Source of the DNA: Myxococcales bacterium
GTDB lineage: Bacteria > Myxococcota_A > UBA9042 > JABWCM01 > BTVJ01
Direction of reading: 5' to 3'
NCBI GenBank assembly: GCA_045863395.1
Contig: BTVJ01000137.1
Location: forward strand, 1 to 13,223
Length of the DNA: 13,223 nt
Shown here in pieces: positions 1,333-12,642 of this stretch. How positions within the stretch are numbered: the first letter of the stretch is position 1; every line of letters begins with the position of its first letter. The position numbers and the translations under genes were made by a program. The notes beneath the pieces are model-generated. The model saw only the letters and a list, made by a program, of their open reading frames with translations. It made no database searches and was not told the DNA's origin.

Positions 1333-2934
1333 ATGCGCAAGGCCGACAAGGAGCGCGTTCTCGTCGAGGTCACGAGCAGAGCGGTCGCCAGCAAGATCGC
1401 CGCGGCGCGTGACGGCAGCGGTCTCCCCCTGGAGAACCTGCTCAACGACACCCTCTACCACGAGCGCAAGCGCCTCGAGACAGAGCCCCGCAACGCCGCC
1501 CGCAAGCACGACCTGGCCTTCTGGAACGAGATCGGGCGCGCGCTTGGCCGCGCCTCCCAAGAGGAGGTTCGTGACCTGCTCAAACGCGTCGTCGAGCGCT
1601 ATGTCATCGAGATCATGGGGAACTTCAGTGACTCCGTCTATCGGGTCGCGACGAAGGCCCTCCCCATCGGCCTCGGCGGCCTGCTCAACGCCCTGTCGCC
1701 TGCGCGCCTGGTCACGGGCTTCCCGTCCTTCCCGAGCCTGGACGACACGCTGATCATCCAGGGTGACGTCGACACGCTGCGCTCCCTCGACGAGAAGGGC
1801 ACCATCGTCATGGCCCCCACCCACCTGTCCAATCTGGACAGCATCATCATGGGGTGGGCCATCTACCGAATGGGGCTGCCTCCCTACCTCTATGGCGCTG
1901 GGCTCAACCTGTTCTCGAATCCTCTGATCAGCTTCTTTATGAACAACCTGGGCGCCTACCGGGTGGACCGGAAGAAGAAGAGCGCCCTGTACAAAGATGT
2001 CCTCAAGGAGTACGCGACCTGCTCCATCGAGCTGGGCTACGACAACCTCTTCTTCCCCGGGGGGACCCGCTCCCGGTCCGGCCTCGTCGAGCAGAAGCTG
2101 AAGCTCGGGCTGCTCGGCACCGGTCTTGGCGCTTACATCAACAACCTCCGAACGGGGCGCCCCAGCCCGAAGGTCTTCGTCGTCCCGGTCACTCTGAGCT
2201 ACCACCTCGTGCTCGAGGCAGAGACCCTCATAGACGACTACCTCAAAGAGGCCGGGAAGGCGCGCTACATCATCACGGACGACGAGTTCTCCCGGCCACG
2301 GCGCATCGCCACCTTCCTGTCGAACCTGGTCAACCTGGACGCGCGCATCTACATCACGGTGTGCCCGCCGCTGGATCCCTTCGGCAACCGGGTGCTCGCC
2401 GACGGCACGAGCGTCGATGCCCGTGGGCGCGCCATCGACATCGAGCGCTATGTCCACGTCGGCGGGCGGCCCGACCACGACCCCTGGCGGGACCAGGAGT
2501 ACACGCTGGAGCTGGGTGACTCGGTGCGTGCGTCGTTCCTGGCGAACAACGTGGCCATGTCCACCCACCTGCTTGCCTTCGCCATGTTCCGGCTCATGAG
2601 AGACCGAAACCCCGGCTTGGACCTGTATCGCCTGCTGCGGACCGGCGGCGACGAGGACAGCATGGTCCTGACCGATGTGTACGCCCGGGTCGATGCTCTC
2701 CTCGGGCGCGTGGGCAACCTGGTCCGCGACCGCCGCATCCAGGTCGACCCGCGCCTGGACGGCAAGCCCGTCAGCGAGGTGGTCTCCGACGCTCTGCGCC
2801 ACTTCGGCACCTACCACAGCCACGCAGTGGTGGAGCGGCGGGGTGATCGCCTGTTCGCCGGAGACATGAACCTCCTCTACTACTACCACAACAGGCTGGT
2901 CGGCTACGGCCTGGAGGCGAAGGAGGCCGCATGA
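1333..2934 (+). CDS. Glycerol-3-phosphate/lysophospholipid acyltransferase, PlsB/GPAT-like (LPLAT superfamily), 533 aa
   Basis: AGGAG RBS at 1322-1326. Catalytic HxxxxD is PTHLSNLDS (H-D at 1822-1839). Also present are GAGLNL, LGAYRVDR, block III FFPGGTRSRSG, KLKLGLL and VVPVTLSYHLVLE, all GPAT-type blocks. ATGA overlap with gpsA. Confidence 0.9.
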   Translation: MRKADKERVLVEVTSRAVASKIAAARDGSGLPLENLLNDTLYHERKRLETEPRNAARKHDLAFWNEIGRALGRASQEEVRDLLKRVVERYVIEIMGNFSDSVYRVATKALPIGLGGLLNALSPARLVTGFPSFPSLDDTLIIQGDVDTLRSLDEKGTIVMAPTHLSNLDSIIMGWAIYRMGLPPYLYGAGLNLFSNPLISFFMNNLGAYRVDRKKKSALYKDVLKEYATCSIELGYDNLFFPGGTRSRSGLVEQKLKLGLLGTGLGAYINNLRTGRPSPKVFVVPVTLSYHLVLEAETLIDDYLKEAGKARYIITDDEFSRPRRIATFLSNLVNLDARIYITVCPPLDPFGNRVLADGTSVDARGRAIDIERYVHVGGRPDHDPWRDQEYTLELGDSVRASFLANNVAMSTHLLAFAMFRLMRDRNPGLDLYRLLRTGGDEDSMVLTDVYARVDALLGRVGNLVRDRRIQVDPRLDGKPVSEVVSDALRHFGTYHSHAVVERRGDRLFAGDMNLLYYYHNRLVGYGLEAKEAA

Positions 2935-3953
2935 GCGCGCGTGAGACGGTCACGGTGGTCGGCGGCGGGAGCTGGGGGACGACGCTGGCTCATCTCTTTG
3001 CTCAGAACGACCACGACGTGCTGCTGTGGGTGCGCCGGGCCGATCAGGTGCGCCAGATCAACGAGGAGCACCGCAACGAGCGGTATCTCCCGGGCTACGC
3101 CATCCACCCGGGGGTCTCGGCCACCGAGGACCTGGAGCGCGCCATGCGCCACTCCCGCGTCGTCGTGGTGGTCGTGCCGTCCCACGCGCTCCGCTCCGTC
3201 GCGTCCGAGATGGGGCGCCACGCGACGGGCGATCAGCTCCTGATCAGCGCCACCAAGGGGCTGGAGCGGGACTCCTTCAAGCGAATGACCCAGCTCCTGG
3301 CCGAGGAGACCTGCTGCAAGAAGCTCGGCGTCCTGAGCGGACCCAACCTGGCGCGCGAGATCATGGCGGGCCAGCCGGCGGCTACGGTCATCGCGTCCCG
3401 GTATCGGGAGGTGGTTGCCGAGGGGGCTCGGCTCCTGGCGACCCCCATGTTTCGGGTCTATGGCAACGGCGACGTGCCTGGCGTGGAGATGTGCGGCGCT
3501 CTCAAGAACATCATCGCCATCGCCTCCGGTGTCGCCGCCGGGCTCGGGCTCGGCGACAACTCGCAGTCCATGCTGATGACGCGCGGGTTGGCTGAGATCC
3601 GCCGCATCGGCGAGGCGGTGGGGGCGACCCCGCTGACCTTCAGCGGCCTCGCCGGCATCGGCGATCTCATGGCCACCTGCGCCAGCTCCCTGAGCCGCAA
3701 CCACCAGGTGGGGTTTCGCCTGGCCAAGGGGGAGTCCCTCCCGCACATCCTGGAGACCATGGTCCAGGTGGCGGAGGGAGTGAACACGGCGGAGATCGCA
3801 CAGGCCTATGCGAGGCGCCTGGGTGTGGAGATGCCGATCACCGCTGGGGTCTGCCAGCTCCTCTTCGAAGGCATGTCTCCCCAGGACGCGATCCGGGAGC
3901 TCATGAACCGGCGCTCCACCTATGAGATTGATGCGACTCCCATTCACGCGTGA
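2931..3953 (+). CDS. gpsA: NAD(P)H-dependent glycerol-3-phosphate dehydrogenase, 340 aa
   Basis: Rossmann motif VVGGGSWGTTLA, plus NERYLPG, ATKGLE, LSGPNLARE, GALKNIIAIASG, GDN, GLAGIGDL.ATC.S..SRN and VAEGV. AAGGAGG RBS lies within the end of the upstream gene. Confidence 0.97.
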   Translation: MSARETVTVVGGGSWGTTLAHLFAQNDHDVLLWVRRADQVRQINEEHRNERYLPGYAIHPGVSATEDLERAMRHSRVVVVVVPSHALRSVASEMGRHATGDQLLISATKGLERDSFKRMTQLLAEETCCKKLGVLSGPNLAREIMAGQPAATVIASRYREVVAEGARLLATPMFRVYGNGDVPGVEMCGALKNIIAIASGVAAGLGLGDNSQSMLMTRGLAEIRRIGEAVGATPLTFSGLAGIGDLMATCASSLSRNHQVGFRLAKGESLPHILETMVQVAEGVNTAEIAQAYARRLGVEMPITAGVCQLLFEGMSPQDAIRELMNRRSTYEIDATPIHA

Positions 3954-4878
3954 CCGGCCGTCGCCGGAGTCCTGGTGCTATCCCCTGGACCGCAGCGACC
4001 AGCGGCTCATCGACCCTGACTGGCGGGGCGCCATCGTCACGTGTGACATCGACAAGACCTATCTGCGGACGCAGCTCGAGTCATTGAGTGGGATGCTGCG
4101 AGTCCCCATGGAGTTGGCCATCGACAAGCGGGCCATCCCAGGGACCGTGCCGATGCTGAAGGCGCTGCGTCGCGGCCCGGGACCGCAGCACCAGAACACG
4201 CCGCTCTACTTCGTGTCTGCGAGCCCGCCCCAGCTCCGGCGCGTCATCGAGCGCAAGATGCTCCTCGACGGAGTGGACTACGACGGGATCACATTCAAGG
4301 ACTGGGTGGGCCTGCTGCGGGCAGGCCAGCCGTCCAAGCTGAGAAACCACATCGGGTACAAGCTCTCGGCCCTCCTGCTGAACCGTCGGGCCCACCCGGA
4401 GGGGGCCCGGGAGCTGCTCTTCGGGGACGACAGCGAGACAGACGCCATGATCTACTGGACCTACGCGGCGATCCTCCGCGGGGAGCTCCGGGGACCGGCG
4501 CTGCTCGACCACCTGGCGGTGCACGGCGTCGCCCCGGAGGACGGGGTCTACGTCGAGCGGCTGTGTCGCGATCTCGCCGACACCGATGCCGTGGAGCGAG
4601 CCTTCATCCATTTGGAGGTCGGGCGCGCCCCGGAGGCGTTCTCTACCTGGGCTCCGCTCGTCGTGCCGACCCGAAACCCACTGCAGGCTGTGGCGCTGCT
4701 CCGGCTCGCCTCGTACGTAGATGCCCGCGCCGTCTCCGACGTGTCCCACGACCTGCTCGCCGAGGGCGAGCTGGACGCGGCCGATCTGTCCGCGGCGGTC
4801 ACGGACCTCGTGGATCGTGGCTTGGCGACGGAGACGGATCTGGCCGAGGTCCGTGAGCTCCTAGCCCAGGTGGTGTAG
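3922..4878 (+). CDS. HAD-like DxDxT phosphatase, putative App1/DUF2183-like phosphatidate phosphatase (start could be 3931)
   Basis: Motif I IVTCDIDKT (DIDKT at 4045-4059), motif II YFVSASP, a candidate motif III Lys in HIGYKL and motif IV LLFGDDSETD (GDDSETD at 4423-4443). The order and spacing resemble the App1 catalytic domain pattern (DIDDT / YVSxSP / LIGDSGExD). The gene overlaps the gpsA 3' end. The substrate is inferred from motifs and context. Confidence 0.7.
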   Translation: MRLMRLPFTRDRPSPESWCYPLDRSDQRLIDPDWRGAIVTCDIDKTYLRTQLESLSGMLRVPMELAIDKRAIPGTVPMLKALRRGPGPQHQNTPLYFVSASPPQLRRVIERKMLLDGVDYDGITFKDWVGLLRAGQPSKLRNHIGYKLSALLLNRRAHPEGARELLFGDDSETDAMIYWTYAAILRGELRGPALLDHLAVHGVAPEDGVYVERLCRDLADTDAVERAFIHLEVGRAPEAFSTWAPLVVPTRNPLQAVALLRLASYVDARAVSDVSHDLLAEGELDAADLSAAVTDLVDRGLATETDLAEVRELLAQVV

Positions 4879-5478
4879 CGGCGAGTCTGAGCGGGCCCAG
4901 CACTCCGTCACTGCGCCCGGCTCGCTCGCCAGCTCGGGCCAGGAGCGGCCCGGGGTTGGAGTCCCCAGCGCCCGCGCCAGCGACGTGGCGCTCTTCGCCT
5001 CACCCGCGAGGAGCTGTCTCGCCCACGCCCGAAACGGGTGGTTGGGTAGCCGATCCCACCCCAGGGCGCGCTCCATGTCCTGTATCTCCCGTTCTCCGGC
5101 CCGTGACACCGGGTACAGGAACTCGTCGTCCGGGTCGTCGCCCAGCTTGGCGACGGGCTTGCCGTCCAGGTAGGCCTTTGCGCGCCAGTCCCCCCAGGGA
5201 TCCACCGTCAATGCGACGACGAGAGTGCCACGGAGCGCGGCGCTCGCGTCTCGCCCCCAGGTGAAGATTCGATCTCGCTCCTCCGGCGCCACGACGGTCC
5301 AGTCTCCCCCCGGCAGGAGTGCCCACTCGCGCACCTCGAACGCTTGTCGCGGGTAGCCATTGGGGATCGGCGTGGCCAGTCGCCTGTACCCTTCGCCGTG
5401 GGCCACGGCGCACAGGGCATCTGCGACCCTGAGCTGGTCGGAGGTGGCGACGAACAGCAGCGAGCGGGTCTTCCCCAC
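4861..5478 (-). CDS. Hypothetical protein, 205 aa
   Basis: GTG start lies 4 nt after the stop of the upstream kinase-like gene. The composition looks globular (Trp-rich, alternating alpha/beta). The ORF exactly fills the gap and overlaps the convergent phosphatase stop by 18 bp. Confidence 0.75.
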   Translation of the reverse strand: MGKTRSLLFVATSDQLRVADALCAVAHGEGYRRLATPIPNGYPRQAFEVREWALLPGGDWTVVAPEERDRIFTWGRDASAALRGTLVVALTVDPWGDWRAKAYLDGKPVAKLGDDPDDEFLYPVSRAGEREIQDMERALGWDRLPNHPFRAWARQLLAGEAKSATSLARALGTPTPGRSWPELASEPGAVTECWARSDSPLHHLG

Positions 5479-5482
5479 GTGT

Positions 5483-8400
5483 CTACTCGGGATCCGCGCA
5501 GCAGCGGAACCCGACGTAGGAGGCCGGAGACGACTCGAGGCGCTTCGGCGACCGGGAGCAGGTGGCCGACGCGTCGTCGTTGACGGCGTTGCCGCCGTTG
5601 ACCGTCTTGTCCGCCGTCCACTCGCTCACGTTGCCGCTCATGTCGAAGAGGCCGTAGCCACTCTTGCAGCGCTTCATGCTCCCGGCAGGCTTGATCTCCC
5701 GCTCCTCGCCGTTCTCGCCCATGGTGTTGCAGGCGGTCGAGTCGTAGGTCTTGCCGTAGGGGTAGACTCCCCCGCACCCCCGCTTCCACTCGGCGCTGGT
5801 GCAGAGGCGGCGACCGCGCCCCTCACAGGCCCGCGTGGCTCCAAACCAGTCCACGTTGACCTTGGGCTTCTGCCCCGCCCCCGGAAACTCGTAAGGCTCG
5901 ATGCAGAACGCCCCCTTCTCGATGACCTTGTGGCCAGCCACGGTCCTGGTCGTGCTCGTGCTGATCTTGCGCATCCCGGCGGGGCACTTCAGGTCACCAT
6001 CGTCGTCCGGGTCGGGTGTCGCTGCCGCGACCACTGCGGCTTTCTGTGCCTCCTTGGCTGCCTTCTCCTCGGCCTTCTTGCGCGCTGCCTCCTCCTTGGC
6101 GGCCTTCTGGGCCTCCTTCTTCAGGCGCAGCTCCTCGTCCTTCTGCCGCTTGGCCTCGGCACGCTGAGCGGCGCTCATCTCTGCGAGGGCCTTCTTCTCT
6201 GCCAGTGCGGCCGCCTTCGCCTCGGCCTTCGCCTTCTCGCGTGCCTCGTTGGCGGCGACCTCGGCTGGCGTGAGCTCCTTCTTGGCGGCCTCCTCGGCCT
6301 TCTTGGCCTCTGCCAGCTTCTTCGCCTCCTCGGCCTTCTTGGCCTCCGCCAGCTTCTTGGCCTCCTCGGCCTCGGCCTTCTTGGCCTCCTCGGCCTTCTT
6401 GGCCTCCTCGGCCTTCTTGGCCTCCTCGGCCGCCAGCTTCGCGGCGGCTTCGTCTGCGGCTCTCTTGGCTGCCTCCTCCTCCGCTCTCTTGGCCTCTTCT
6501 GCCGCCAGCCGTGTCTGCTCTTCTGCCTTTCGGGCCTCCTCCGCAGCGAGGCTCTCTGCGCTCTGCGCGTCGCCGGACGCAGAAGACGCCGTACCTGCCA
6601 CGGTCCCGTCCTCGGTCGCCTGTGCGGTGAGGGTCACCCCATCGGGCTTGCCTGCGTCGCCCGCCGCGGCGACCTGGGAAGCCGTGTCCGCCTGGGCGGT
6701 CTGGCCGGCGTCCTGCTGACCGGCGTCCGCCGCAGCGGCGATGGCCCCCGTGTCTGGAGCAGCGGCGATGGCCCCGGCGTCGTCCGGCCGCGCGGTCCCC
6801 AGCCCTGTGTCCGGCGCTGCCTGCGCGACGGCCACCGGCTTCGGGCCGTCGGCGGGGTTCCCCGTCGCGACCGCATCGCCCTTCTTCGCGGCGGGAGCCC
6901 CCGCATACTGGACGTAGGTGTAGATCGCGGCGCCCACGATCAGGACGATCCCCGCCGCCAGCGCGAAACGCGCTCCTGCGCCGCCCTTGCGGGGTGCGCT
7001 CGGGGTCGCCACCGCGCGCTCCTGTCCGCCGATGCCGGTCGCGGTGCGCGCTGACGCAGCCGCCTCCGTTGCCGCTTGCTTGGGGTGAGGGCGCAGAGGG
7101 ACCAACATCACCTCCGCCATGCCGACGTCCAGGGTTGCGTCCTCGGTGTATGACGGTCGCTCGGGGCGTGCGGGCACCTCCGCGGCGGGCTCCTCGTCCC
7201 CCTCCAGCAGGATGGGCTCCTCCTCGTCCGGGGCGAGGATCAGGTCCTCGTCACTCGCCTCCACCCTGCGGTCCGCGGCGGGCTGGCCGGGGATGTGTAC
7301 CCGCGCCCTCTCCAGGACGATGGTGGCGTCGTGGTCCTCCGGCATCGGGAGGCCCGTCGCGTGCTCCGCCTCCCCCGCGACGCTCCCCGCTTGCCGTGGT
7401 AGGGGCAGAACGCTGGTCTGCTGGCCCGTCGGACGTTCGTCCGTCGCGCGGCGACGGAGCCCAGCGTCCGCCAGTGCGGCCGGCAGCGCGTCCGCGGCCT
7501 CCTCGGGGAGCCCCGGGACGGAGAAGTCCGGCGCCCCGCCCCCGGCGAGCCCCCCGCCGGCATCCTCGGCCTCGGCCACCGCCATGACGAGCTCGACATC
7601 GGACTCGTCCCCGTCCGCCTCCAACACCTCGTCCAGCTCCCCGTCCAGCAGGATCTCGGCCGCCGCGTCCCCCTCCGCGAGGACGTCCTCGAGCTCGAGG
7701 TCGATCTCGTCCTCGCCCTCCTCGCTCGGGACATCTGCCCGGATCATCGACGTGGCCGTGAGGGAGTCCTCATCCTCCAGGGGAGCCCCGACGTCGCTCA
7801 CGCCCGCCGCGGTGTCCGCGGCCTCATCCAGCGCGGTCTCGACGTCGGGGGCTTCGGCTTCTCCACCCTCGTCTCCGGCGGTCTCTGGCGGAGCTGCTGG
7901 CACCACCCTCGCGTCAAACCCGGAGTCCGTGAGCTCCTCGACGCCGACGACCTGCTCGACACCGTCGGGGGCGCTGTCCGGACGCGCCAGCGTCGCCGCC
8001 TTCGACTCACGGACGTGGCGCAGCACCTCCAGCCGGAGCCTGCTGTCCTCCAGCGTGTCGACCAGCGTGCGCTCGAACAGGTTGTCGTCCGCCACGAGGG
8101 GCCTGCCGTCCTTTGACAGCCACGCCGGCGGAGCGCTCGTCTCCAGCTCATCGTCCCAGTCGAGCGTGACCTCGTCCTCCGCATCGGACCCGGCAACGCG
8201 GGCGACGGGCTCGACCAGGGCCTCCACTCCCTCGGCACGGATGGACGCGGACGCCACCTCGGCCTCGGGGTGCCACGGCACGTCCTCCAGGTCCTCCGCC
8301 ACGTCGACCGCGTCGGCCGGCGGGACATCGGACGGCATCGCGGGCGGGATCCACGCGCCCTCCGCAGCGAGGCGCTCGGCGTTGCGTGCGGCCCTGACGG

Positions 8401-9298
8401 CATCGATCTGCTCGATCTCCGCCGCGGTGAGCACGTCGGCCAGCGGGACCTCCGTGGTGTCCCCCAGGTCCGCCACGACGCGCTTGCCCTCCATGGGGAA
8501 CGCGCGCCGGAGGTCCGCCAGGAAGCTGTCCACGGACGCATAGCGGGACACCGGATCCGAGGCCGTCGCCTTGACGAACAGCTCGTCTAGCGTAGATGAG
8601 ACGTCCTCGGCCTGTGCTGAGAGCGGGATTCCCGGGCGCACCGCCGCGCGGGCGACCAGCTCCCCGGTGAGCAGGGCGAGGGCGAACAGGTCGCTCTGCC
8701 GCGACTCCTCGCCGGCCCGAAGGAGCTGCTCCGGCGCCAGGTAGTGATCGGCGAGGGGGTCCTCGCCCGTAGACCAGCGCACCTTCGCTCGCCCCACGAG
8801 GAAGAACGGGTCCGTGACCTTCACCGCCTCGCCTGAGACGAAGATGTTCTCGGGCTTCAGGTTCCCATGCACGCCGAGCTGGTGGATCCACCGCAGCGCC
8901 GACGCGACGCCCTCGATGACGAAGCGGACCTCGGCGGGGGACAGCGGGTCTCCCGAGTCGTGGCGGAGCATCTGGATGGTCCGCAGGTTCAGCCCCTCGA
9001 TGAGGTCCTCGGTGACGAACGGGGGCGAGCCGTCCTCGGGGATCACCATGTCGTGGAACACCACGATGTTGGGATGCTGGAAGGCCCGAGCCCGCTGCAC
9101 GCGGAACGCGTTCACCGCCCTGCGGTCGTCCTCGAAGTACGCCGGGTGCAGCACCTTCAGCGCGACGCCGCGCCTGAGCGCCAGGTCGATGGCCTTGAAC
9201 ACGGCCCCGATGGGGCCCTTTCCGATGTACTCGACGAGCTGGTAGCGACCCTGAAGGACTTCGCCCACCGGGGGAAGCCAGCGCTCCGTGACGACCAT
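5483..9298 (-). CDS. Membrane-anchored Ser/Thr protein kinase-like (pseudokinase) protein with acidic linker, TM helix, TolA-like stalk and C-terminal FGE-sulfatase/SUMF1-like domain, about 1271 aa
   Basis: The start is reassigned from 9469 to ATG 9298 (AAGAGG RBS; MVVTERWLPPVGEVLQGRYQL). Hanks motifs: GKGPIGAVF, VALKVL, HPNIV, HGNLKPENI, KVTDPFF, YLAPEQ, SDLFALA, RY. TM helix FALAAGIVLIVGAAIYTYV at about 6910-6967. AEEAKK repeats at about 6035-6545. The C-terminal domain (about 5483-5990) has CPAGM, FCIEPYEFP, RLCTSAEW, YPYG, GLFDMSGNVSEW and VGFRCC. Confidence 0.9.
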   Translation of the reverse strand: MVVTERWLPPVGEVLQGRYQLVEYIGKGPIGAVFKAIDLALRRGVALKVLHPAYFEDDRRAVNAFRVQRARAFQHPNIVVFHDMVIPEDGSPPFVTEDLIEGLNLRTIQMLRHDSGDPLSPAEVRFVIEGVASALRWIHQLGVHGNLKPENIFVSGEAVKVTDPFFLVGRAKVRWSTGEDPLADHYLAPEQLLRAGEESRQSDLFALALLTGELVARAAVRPGIPLSAQAEDVSSTLDELFVKATASDPVSRYASVDSFLADLRRAFPMEGKRVVADLGDTTEVPLADVLTAAEIEQIDAVRAARNAERLAAEGAWIPPAMPSDVPPADAVDVAEDLEDVPWHPEAEVASASIRAEGVEALVEPVARVAGSDAEDEVTLDWDDELETSAPPAWLSKDGRPLVADDNLFERTLVDTLEDSRLRLEVLRHVRESKAATLARPDSAPDGVEQVVGVEELTDSGFDARVVPAAPPETAGDEGGEAEAPDVETALDEAADTAAGVSDVGAPLEDEDSLTATSMIRADVPSEEGEDEIDLELEDVLAEGDAAAEILLDGELDEVLEADGDESDVELVMAVAEAEDAGGGLAGGGAPDFSVPGLPEEAADALPAALADAGLRRRATDERPTGQQTSVLPLPRQAGSVAGEAEHATGLPMPEDHDATIVLERARVHIPGQPAADRRVEASDEDLILAPDEEEPILLEGDEEPAAEVPARPERPSYTEDATLDVGMAEVMLVPLRPHPKQAATEAAASARTATGIGGQERAVATPSAPRKGGAGARFALAAGIVLIVGAAIYTYVQYAGAPAAKKGDAVATGNPADGPKPVAVAQAAPDTGLGTARPDDAGAIAAAPDTGAIAAAADAGQQDAGQTAQADTASQVAAAGDAGKPDGVTLTAQATEDGTVAGTASSASGDAQSAESLAAEEARKAEEQTRLAAEEAKRAEEEAAKRAADEAAAKLAAEEAKKAEEAKKAEEAKKAEAEEAKKLAEAKKAEEAKKLAEAKKAEEAAKKELTPAEVAANEAREKAKAEAKAAALAEKKALAEMSAAQRAEAKRQKDEELRLKKEAQKAAKEEAARKKAEEKAAKEAQKAAVVAAATPDPDDDGDLKCPAGMRKISTSTTRTVAGHKVIEKGAFCIEPYEFPGAGQKPKVNVDWFGATRACEGRGRRLCTSAEWKRGCGGVYPYGKTYDSTACNTMGENGEEREIKPAGSMKRCKSGYGLFDMSGNVSEWTADKTVNGGNAVNDDASATCSRSPKRLESSPASYVGFRCCADPE
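6377..6430. repeat. 18-bp coding tandem repeat (3 perfect copies, AEEAKK) inside a larger degenerate Ala/Glu/Lys repeat region (about 6035-6545)
   Basis: CTTCTTGGCCTCCTCGGC occurs at 6377-6394, 6395-6412 and 6413-6430. Degenerate copies (LAEAKK, AEEAAKK) flank it. Confidence 0.9.
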
Positions 9299-9420
9299 GT
9301 GAACCTCTTGCGGCGGCTCGTCCCACCGGGCGGGCTGCGGCGCGGGCGCGCCGGGAGACCGTGGCGGGTCGGGGCTTCGGGCCGGGCCCACACGGGCGCC
9401 CAGCCTTTTGCGAACGGCGA

Positions 9421-12642
<3,222 letters not shown>

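Follow-up and report, generated by a model that had tools for sequence, protein, structure and literature searches.

What does a membrane protein do that resembles a protein kinase at one end and a formylglycine-generating enzyme (FGE) at the other, and that lacks catalytic residues of both? The question is raised by P0001, a gene on a 13,223-nucleotide stretch of a Myxococcales bacterium (contig BTVJ01000137.1; the whole stretch is hereafter the window). In its 1271-residue product Pfam recognizes a Pkinase domain (residues 19–222, E 5e-19) and an FGE-sulfatase domain (1138–1232, E 9e-15), the NCBIfam matches (PknB-type kinases, GldK) all stay below threshold, and NCBI itself names one protein of this family ‘bifunctional serine/threonine-protein kinase/formylglycine-generating enzyme family protein’. 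A first-pass annotation, made from the sequence alone, had laid the protein out as a kinase-like domain, an acidic linker, a PRKGG patch, a transmembrane (TM) helix, a second linker, an Ala/Glu/Lys (A/E/K) segment and an FGE-like domain, and all of these are present in that order. Its estimates of about 500 and 170 residues for the acidic linker and the A/E/K segment agree with the 507 and 173 that we measure; the Ala/Asp/Gly/Thr linker is likewise there, at 118 residues instead of about 130.

We read P0001 as a conserved, receptor-like pseudokinase scaffold that would cross the membrane once and relay binding in the envelope to cytoplasmic partners without canonical phosphotransfer, a reading to which we give about even credence. 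The evidence lies in the kinase-like domain, in the outer domain with its C-type-lectin fold (CLec), and in a small partner gene, X.

The kinase-like domain and its family

The kinase-like domain, which among solved structures comes nearest to StkP and PknB, retains Lys48 (within VALK), Lys148 and the Gly-rich loop. In the family alignment Arg66 occupies the alphaC-Glu column, the catalytic loop reads HGNLKPEN from residue 144, and the Asp of DFG persists as Asp163 within an altered motif, DPF. We counted these positions in 151 kinase domains of one clade, 43 of them forming the subclade of the window's own class, with 24 active kinases of this genome as controls. The Arg of the RD motif is missing from all 151, and alphaC Glu is present in 12, against 23 of the 24 controls. 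The catalytic Asp survives in 41 domains of the family and in none of the 43 from the class, where Asn stands at this site in 39 (55 of 151 family-wide) and DP[FYW] takes the place of DFG in 39. The beta3 Lys is kept in 102 domains and the DFG Asp in 104; the full Lys/Asp/Asp triad occurs in 36, joined by alphaC Glu in 7, and a Lys/Asn/Asn/Asp pattern in 52. Members named from Myxococcaceae read HSD and DYG.

The fold-core residues E190, D203 and R252 are retained in 51/51 genome-level orthologues. Moreover, the domain is 81–89% identical to those of three close relatives, as against 45–65% for the cytoplasmic linker (35–65% for the linkers overall), which argues that it is, like the outer domain, under purifying selection and not decaying. 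The first-pass claim of two non-catalytic ends is thus borne out for this protein and its class, and fails by motif for the family as a whole; signalling or scaffolding without canonical phosphotransfer is supported in this lineage, to judge from its sequences, by the uniform loss of the catalytic Asp.

The pattern of losses resembles that of HER3 and of the JH2 domain of JAK, in which alphaC Glu is missing and the catalytic Asp has become Asn, with the beta3 Lys, the catalytic-loop Asn, the DFG Asp and Gly50/52 kept. Pseudokinases of this pattern bind ATP according to one account (PMC4718504), which contains neither ‘HGN’ nor ‘DPG’ verbatim and was matched here by its residue descriptions. 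The likeness is convergent, not orthologous, and ATP binding and allosteric activation in P0001 are proposed by analogy.

FastTree places the 151 domains in one clade (support 0.77), apart from the 24 active kinases, and the own-class subclade receives support of 1.0; a quick IQ-TREE run sets own-class and other-class orthologues on opposite sides of the midpoint root. Most of the 41 related genomes that we searched hold one strong orthologue, and the relatives with titles are mostly uncultured Myxococcales or Myxococcota. In a 301-genome sample of the phylum, with 58 genomes in the window's class by family tallies, a kinase profile built on that class matched 33/34 class genomes outside families f7 and f6, a figure that is partly so by construction, and 23/26 genomes of f23, a family of another class. 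Other classes too have loci laid out in this way (f23, f44, f20, f26, f50, f58, f57, f54 and f61), and the layout recurs in database proteins whose names point to Corallococcus and Myxococcaceae; a stricter first look, with a Myxococcaceae-named protein as query, placed the gene in at least 22 of the 301 genomes. The CLec profile matched none of the 23 genomes of f7, where two weak kinase matches proved to be HRD kinases of the usual sort with no CLec domain and were rejected. In 20 further stretches, taken from other families, the neighbourhood of purB or pnp did not yield the gene; one family among them carries a stand-alone CLec instead. The distribution is therefore broad, though patchy. 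Across many myxobacteria the gene is usually single-copy, old and conserved in position. Orthologue counts leave out two duplicate loci, the HRD paralogues L046 and L048, the short-linker proteins L087, L088, L093, L094, L105, L109 and L112, 7 of 107 kinase-plus-CLec database proteins that do not join the clade, and 26 of 133 that are without one domain.

Outer domain, membrane helix and spacer

An AlphaFold2 model of the 169-residue CLec domain (predicted local distance difference test, pLDDT, 91) matches CalU17 (Z 18.8), TvpA (17.9), Mtd (16.5) and PorK (15.8) over 140–158 residues. Against human FGE, which is about 100 residues longer, it gives a Foldseek E of 1.6e-8 and a VIA Z of 15.5 (root-mean-square deviation 2.7, 154 residues aligned). 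When the loop GGNAVNDDASATC is aligned to GGSYM(C336S)HRSYCYRYRC of the human C336S chain, the Cys of its ‘ATC’ pairs with that of RYRC, so that both catalytic Cys of FGE are absent, as the first-pass annotation had it. The role of these two copper-binding residues in FGE, and their absence from Tsi3, a non-catalytic binder of the same fold, are described in 10.1101/2021.05.21.445229; PMC5006420 covers non-catalytic binding by the CLec folds of Mtd and TvpA. Exactly ten Cys are found in 135/146 orthologues, and all 10 of this protein lie in its last domain, which fits a disulfide-bonded periplasmic location. The domain is also the best-conserved region (87–92% identity to the three close relatives) and hence likely binds a fixed partner. 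Twenty-one open reading frames (ORFs) of this genome carry an FGE-type domain, six of them as kinase–TM fusions.

Some loci show the same domain in other contexts. Short, lipoprotein-like CLec ORFs without a kinase stand alone in one family (L110:1565-2260, L111:6437-7261 and L114:3215-3937), before purB or purC in two of the three loci, an unfused state like that of TagR. In one genus an intact HRD kinase is joined to a CLec of the same subfamily (L046:6333-8324 and L048:8057-10153), which suggests domain shuffling. A SPOR-like tail on orthologue P0263 was set aside as unreliable, since it lies at a contig end, has no TM helix before it and gives no Pfam SPOR match.

The topology call rests on hydropathy, flanking charge and the distribution of Cys. 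The sole strong hydrophobic stretch of P0001 is residues 778–796 (Kyte-Doolittle 2.18; next independent peak 1.36), and a TM hydropathy score of at least 1.7 is reached in 146/146 orthologues. Net charge is greater N-terminal of the helix in 41/51 genome-level orthologues, which, with the universal helix, supports the N-in, single-pass topology proposed earlier; the confinement of Cys to the last domain agrees with it.

On the predicted cytoplasmic side, residues 271–770 are 24% Asp plus Glu, PRKGG follows at 769, and conserved Thr-centred islands (e.g., T281, T411, T659 and T722) punctuate the acidic linker. The motif T-x-x-[ILVM] occurs 167 times in the cytoplasmic linkers against 138 expected (z 2.9, on sequences that are related; P0003–P0005 left out), with z 0.0 in the outer spacers and z 0.6 for a Ser control. 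This genome has 36 FHA matches and 72 other kinase-domain matches.

On the other side of the membrane, the first-pass annotation had proposed that the protein works through a TolA-like stalk of periplasmic length: an A/E/K helix of about 25 nm, in a trans-envelope mechanical link, would carry the binding domain to the outer membrane or the peptidoglycan. P0001 itself invites the comparison. A single helix is followed by a linker rich in Ala (33% over residues 801–920) and then by 173 residues that are about 80% A/E/K (measured over 921–1092) with one Pro (1011, within 915–1087), arithmetically at most about 26 nm if fully helical, and A/E/K helices of at least 100 residues recur in 26/146 orthologues. 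However, homologues lacking the stalk had been named beforehand as the finding that would count against the idea, and this is largely what the 146 distinct orthologues present: 103 have no such helix, spacers range from 19 to 554 residues (median 117) and are shorter than 60 in 44, and a quick tree shows 15 changes in the helix trait. Other orthologues fill the spacer with Pro/Ala (one of them in the same order), Pro/Lys/Glu or Ala/Asp/Gly, and Myxococcaceae-named proteins have spacers of 27–40 residues. In this protein the A/E/K segment is partly made of 18-, 42- and 60-bp DNA tandem repeats, which point to recent slippage.

TolA couples to TolQR through a Ser/His motif in its TM helix. The helix of P0001 has no His, nor has that of any but one of the 146 orthologues, so the energizing motif of TolA and TonB is lacking; the terminal domain is CLec instead of TolA-III, the cytoplasmic part is large, and no tol operon adjoins the gene at the loci examined, where the neighbours are ligA, X, pur, dut-pnp and clpA. 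With its hallmarks absent and its spacers so variable, the stalk reading fails. The conserved parts are the two ends and the TM helix, around freely varying linkers; the A/E/K helix is likely one of several interchangeable fillers, to go by the aligned spacers, and the spacer need only tether, although a reach function is possible in long-spacer lineages. This negative finding is useful in itself: a ‘TolA-like’ A/E/K stalk can be an exchangeable filler. Spacers of the longest kind (470–554 residues, in one lineage) hold an amphipathic, repeated helical region.

Partner X, competing readings and known systems

Beyond the stop codon of the pseudokinase gene lies X, whose profile has 119 matches in a set of 1.84 billion representatives; most are proteins about 190 residues long that stand alone. 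X occurs in 24 of the 301 genomes, all of them in the window's class and all pseudokinase-positive (24/24), and it lies at most 2.6 kb downstream of the pseudokinase in 24/38 own-class loci. It is often inside a pur cluster, and is adjacent without purB in five own-class loci as well as in this window. The X model is confident (pLDDT 90.5), and no Foldseek match was found at E<=0.001; its best VIA hit, a DUF1281 protein (Z 6.8 over 92 residues), is within the range of common arrangements and does not imply a new fold. The window protein has no Pfam family and no PDB sequence match, and its ESM Atlas cluster neighbours are unnamed, with DUF6461/DUF6928 at 0.86 as a lead only. Complex prediction of pseudokinase and X scored 0.00 in two runs in which the controls did not fold either, and it carries no weight in either direction. 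A 169-aa downstream gene in another family was rejected as an X homologue (hhalign probability 0.08).

In our proposal, the disulfide-bonded CLec domain would sit in the periplasm on a flexible leash, the spacer acting as a tether only, and would bind an invariant ligand of the envelope; by analogy with TagR, Tsi3 and Mtd/TvpA, this would most likely be a protein. Binding would cluster the molecules and bring pseudokinase domains together. Each, predicted from the HER3/JH2 residue pattern still to hold Mg-ATP, would offer an active Hanks kinase, of which there are many, a surface for docking or allosteric control, and X may dock there as well in this class. Trans-phosphorylation of Thr motifs in the acidic linker could then attract FHA proteins, in the manner of MviN and FhaA. 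We entertain more tentatively, and think it unlikely to hold in full, the notion of an ancestral HER3-like envelope receptor of Myxococcota, a fused and catalytically dead counterpart of PpkA plus TagR whose lectin-fold domain would sense a partner in the envelope and whose ATP-bound pseudokinase would allosterically switch on or organize active Hanks kinases, with X as a dedicated output in the class.

Several results weigh against the scaffold reading. The most divergent lineages have lost the Lys and Mg residues too, so ATP binding cannot be universal, and the minority that keeps the catalytic Asp, the triad or even the triad with alphaC Glu means that some members may be real kinases. The gene is lacking in all 23 f7 genomes searched and is therefore dispensable there. 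Of the 33 class genomes with the pseudokinase, 9 have no X; it was not found outside the class, where a broader profile gave six weak partial matches; one genome has X and the pseudokinase on separate contigs; and X may be no more than a member of the pur cluster. Enrichment of the Thr motif is only modest and, computed on related sequences, is not a clean test, and the tighter [DE]xT[ILVM] is similarly enriched in the active kinases of this genome (z 2.0).

The same data bear on four other explanations. An unlikely one, though it has the most to recommend it, is that the protein is no receptor and works as a structural anchor, which, like EssB/YukC, would nucleate or position an envelope machine (e.g., for cell-wall remodelling) while CLec docks a periplasmic subunit and nothing is relayed. 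It would suit a single-copy gene in a housekeeping setting (purB directly 3' in 25/38 own-class loci; pur genes 3' or dut-pnp 5' in 18/26 loci of other classes), the lytic transglycosylase gene next to the longest-spacer family, the stand-alone CLec proteins described above, the shared fold of the ring subunit PorK, and the scaffolding of the type VIIb secretion system by EssB (PMC12599244). However, no secretion, motility or division genes are conserved neighbours at the loci examined, and most members keep ATP-site residues, all three motifs of which EssB has lost. We regard as rather improbable an atypical, active, non-RD receptor kinase in which ligand-induced dimerization drives weak auto- or trans-phosphorylation, as in HER3 and JAK2 JH2. 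Lys48, Lys148, Asn151, Asp163 and the Gly-rich loop are there, other members have the whole triad or HSD and DYG, and low activity is reported for HER3 and JH2 (PMC4718504), but the class has lost Asp throughout, with alphaC Glu replaced and DP[FYW] nearly universal, and in several lineages Lys has gone too.

The TolA-like mechanical link is very unlikely on the spacer evidence given above. Hardly probable at all is a nucleotide-status sensor, in which an ATP-binding pseudokinase and X would be co-expressed with PurB/C/SQL/F and regulate them. A pur gene does start within 1.5 kb downstream in 27/38 own-class and 13/26 other loci, X is often within the pur cluster, and a second short-linker pseudokinase–CLec family lies near purM-purN. 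Yet in this genome the purB and purF matches are near each other on another contig (G000 C55), many Myxococcota have purB without the pseudokinase gene, such a role needs no periplasmic binding domain, and conserved gene order explains the linkage; the usual setting, with dut-pnp or clpA on one side (clpA is 5' in seven own-class loci) and the pur operon on the other, looks like an old chromosomal position.

How, then, does the pseudokinase scaffold that we favour relate to known systems? Its layout is known. Hanks kinase–TM–FGE-sulfatase proteins (chlamydial kinase-DUF323; the Proteo1-family architecture) have the same domain order, and this genome encodes six, P0001 included; the kinase–FGE architecture was noted in 2005 (PMC1262709) and the FGE-sulfatase architecture is given for the Proteo1 family (10.1101/2025.01.12.632604). 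Compared with such proteins, this orthogroup is without the RD Arg, mostly without alphaC Glu and, in the class, without the catalytic Asp; its FGE-type domain is minimal and has ten Cys; and it is single-copy and syntenic, not one of many paralogues. Pseudomonas PpkA with TagR, the membrane-damage sensor of the H1 type VI secretion system (H1-T6SS), is alike in pairing an inner-membrane Hanks kinase and a disordered region with a periplasmic FGE domain, that of TagR, proposed to bind and dimerize PpkA (PMC13713981). Here, unlike there, a single chain carries both the FGE-type domain and the kinase-like one, the latter without its catalytic base, and no T6SS genes were recognized among the pseudokinase neighbours.

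EssB/YukC and MviN (ActPs3) are likewise membrane-bound bacterial pseudokinases that scaffold partners, and MviN recruits FhaA upon phosphorylation by PknB; they differ in having lost all three motifs, and MviN also ATP binding (PMC12599244). They are proteins of Firmicutes and Actinobacteria without CLec. ActPs1-3, DLHK and GLW always lack the VAIK Lys, according to 10.1101/2025.01.12.632604, whereas two-thirds of the present domains keep it, and CP1 and DLHK have no TM region (PMC12599244), which is universal here. By these definitions the family appears to fit none of the bacterial pseudokinase families compared, and in a kinome atlas it might be placed in Myxo1, Myxo2, Proteo1 or the unclassified set. 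The outer domain belongs with the non-catalytic FGE-type CLec folds of Mtd, TvpA, Tsi3 and PorK/GldK, from which it differs in being highly conserved and not hypervariable, in its ten Cys and in its tether to a pseudokinase. Its conservation also sets it apart from the variable protein of a diversity-generating retroelement; no reverse transcriptase was found among the window proteins scanned.

The first-pass idea of an undescribed envelope-sensing system is therefore only partly upheld. Each component is known from elsewhere. What appears to be undescribed is the orthogroup itself, conserved yet degenerate, together with its HER3-like set of motifs and partner X. A literature search that lay outside most subscription journals and did not identify the Myxococcus xanthus gene yielded no paper on the family. 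A gene that is single-copy, old and conserved in position, yet degenerate in its active site, marks a core function hidden by the ‘kinase/FGE’ annotation, in contrast to most of the dozens of Hanks kinases of myxobacteria, which sit in expanding paralogue families. Its retention of the HER3/JAK JH2 ATP-site pattern makes it a candidate for a bacterial receptor that signals through pseudokinase allostery, and homologues named from cultured Corallococcus put it within reach of ordinary genetics.

Genomic setting and minor observations

Although a further in-frame ATG lies upstream, at 9469, the start was set at 9298 because close homologues begin at that Met and a Shine-Dalgarno-like sequence precedes it (Table 1). 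In public sequencing data, contigs of two runs carry no indels relative to the window and break within the A/E/K repeats. Sixteen RNA-labelled runs contain part of the stretch; in the two best, contigs cover all 30 bins at flat depth, opposite-strand neighbours included, so transcription of the pseudokinase gene and co-transcription with X are not demonstrated by them. Promoter and terminator scans gave nothing on this gene's strand, and a plasmid search returned distant FGE-like matches only.

Table 1. Features of P0001 and its partner gene (window positions).
Feature	Position	Strand	Basis or remark
Gene P0001, pseudokinase–TM–spacer–CLec, 1271 aa	5483..9298	-	ORF translation, Pfam, homologues
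Shine-Dalgarno-like AAGAGG, 5 nt 5' of ATG at 9298	9304..9309	-	
Hanks-type pseudokinase domain, aa 1-270	8489..9298	-	G26/G28, Lys48, Asn151, Asp163 kept; Arg66 for alphaC Glu
HGN replacing HRD, aa 144-146	8861..8869	-	Catalytic base Asp->Asn, RD Arg->Gly
DPF replacing DFG, aa 163-165	8804..8812	-	
Acidic low-complexity linker, predicted cytoplasmic, aa 271-777, with PRKGG at end	6968..8488	-	
Single predicted TM helix, aa 778-796, without His	6911..6967	-	
Ala/Asp/Gly/Thr-rich linker, predicted periplasmic, aa 797-914	6557..6910	-	
Ala/Glu/Lys helical-type segment, aa 915-1087, lineage-specific	6038..6556	-	
Compact FGE-type C-type-lectin-fold (CLec) domain, aa 1103-1271, 10 conserved Cys	5486..5992	-	
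GGNAVNDDASATC loop, aa 1235-1247, site of catalytic Cys pair in FGE	5558..5596	-	Alignment to human FGE
Partner X, 205 aa, no known family, no predicted TM	4861..5478	-	Starts 4 nt past pseudokinase stop

In the window, P0001 is flanked by ligA and a nucleotidyltransferase gene on one side and by lipid genes and X on the other. The former pair (9569-12642, plus strand) comprises an NAD-dependent DNA ligase and an overlapping nucleotidyltransferase, and ligA is divergent from the pseudokinase gene in the closest relative genome too. The latter (1333-4878, plus strand) encode an acyltransferase, a glycerol-3-phosphate dehydrogenase and an APP1-like phosphatidate phosphatase domain protein, likely a lipid operon converging on X. 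At the contig end (positions 1-79), an ORF whose start resembles that of a lipoprotein contains a 24-bp unit repeated perfectly in tandem (3.3 copies). The purB of this genome is distant from the gene-linked purB type of its relatives (117 bits), which suggests that the ancestral pur cluster was replaced.

Other neighbours are peculiar to single lineages. A TPR-SLT lytic transglycosylase gene lies directly 3' in 5/6 loci of the family with spacers of 470–554 residues, which is without X (L023:12726-14945, L031:12135-14438, L034:2639-4867, L036:4293-5954 and, cut, L032:10941-11492). In f44, a REC-GGDEF diguanylate cyclase gene directly 3' (L080:6164-7093, L081:8304-9272, L082:5759-6703 and L089:5589-6587) might provide a cyclic di-GMP output. 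In f23 (L073, L074, L084, L085 and L090), the gene just upstream on the same strand encodes a TM-helix kinase in which HRD and DFG are intact, and in three of these loci a 150-aa secreted-type protein of no known kind lies between it and the pseudokinase gene. This kinase was not accepted as a partner, its best match in the window's genome having a different layout (42–45% identity).

A second family of degenerate kinase–TM–CLec proteins, with short linkers (L087, L088, L093, L094, L105, L109, L112 and L148), has several members beside a ubiB-like gene and is the one found near purM-purN. Members of the main family outside the window's class (P0291, P0303, P0349, L076, L081 and L082) often begin with a CxxC...CxxC zinc-ribbon-like stretch ahead of the kinase domain, which P0001 does not have.

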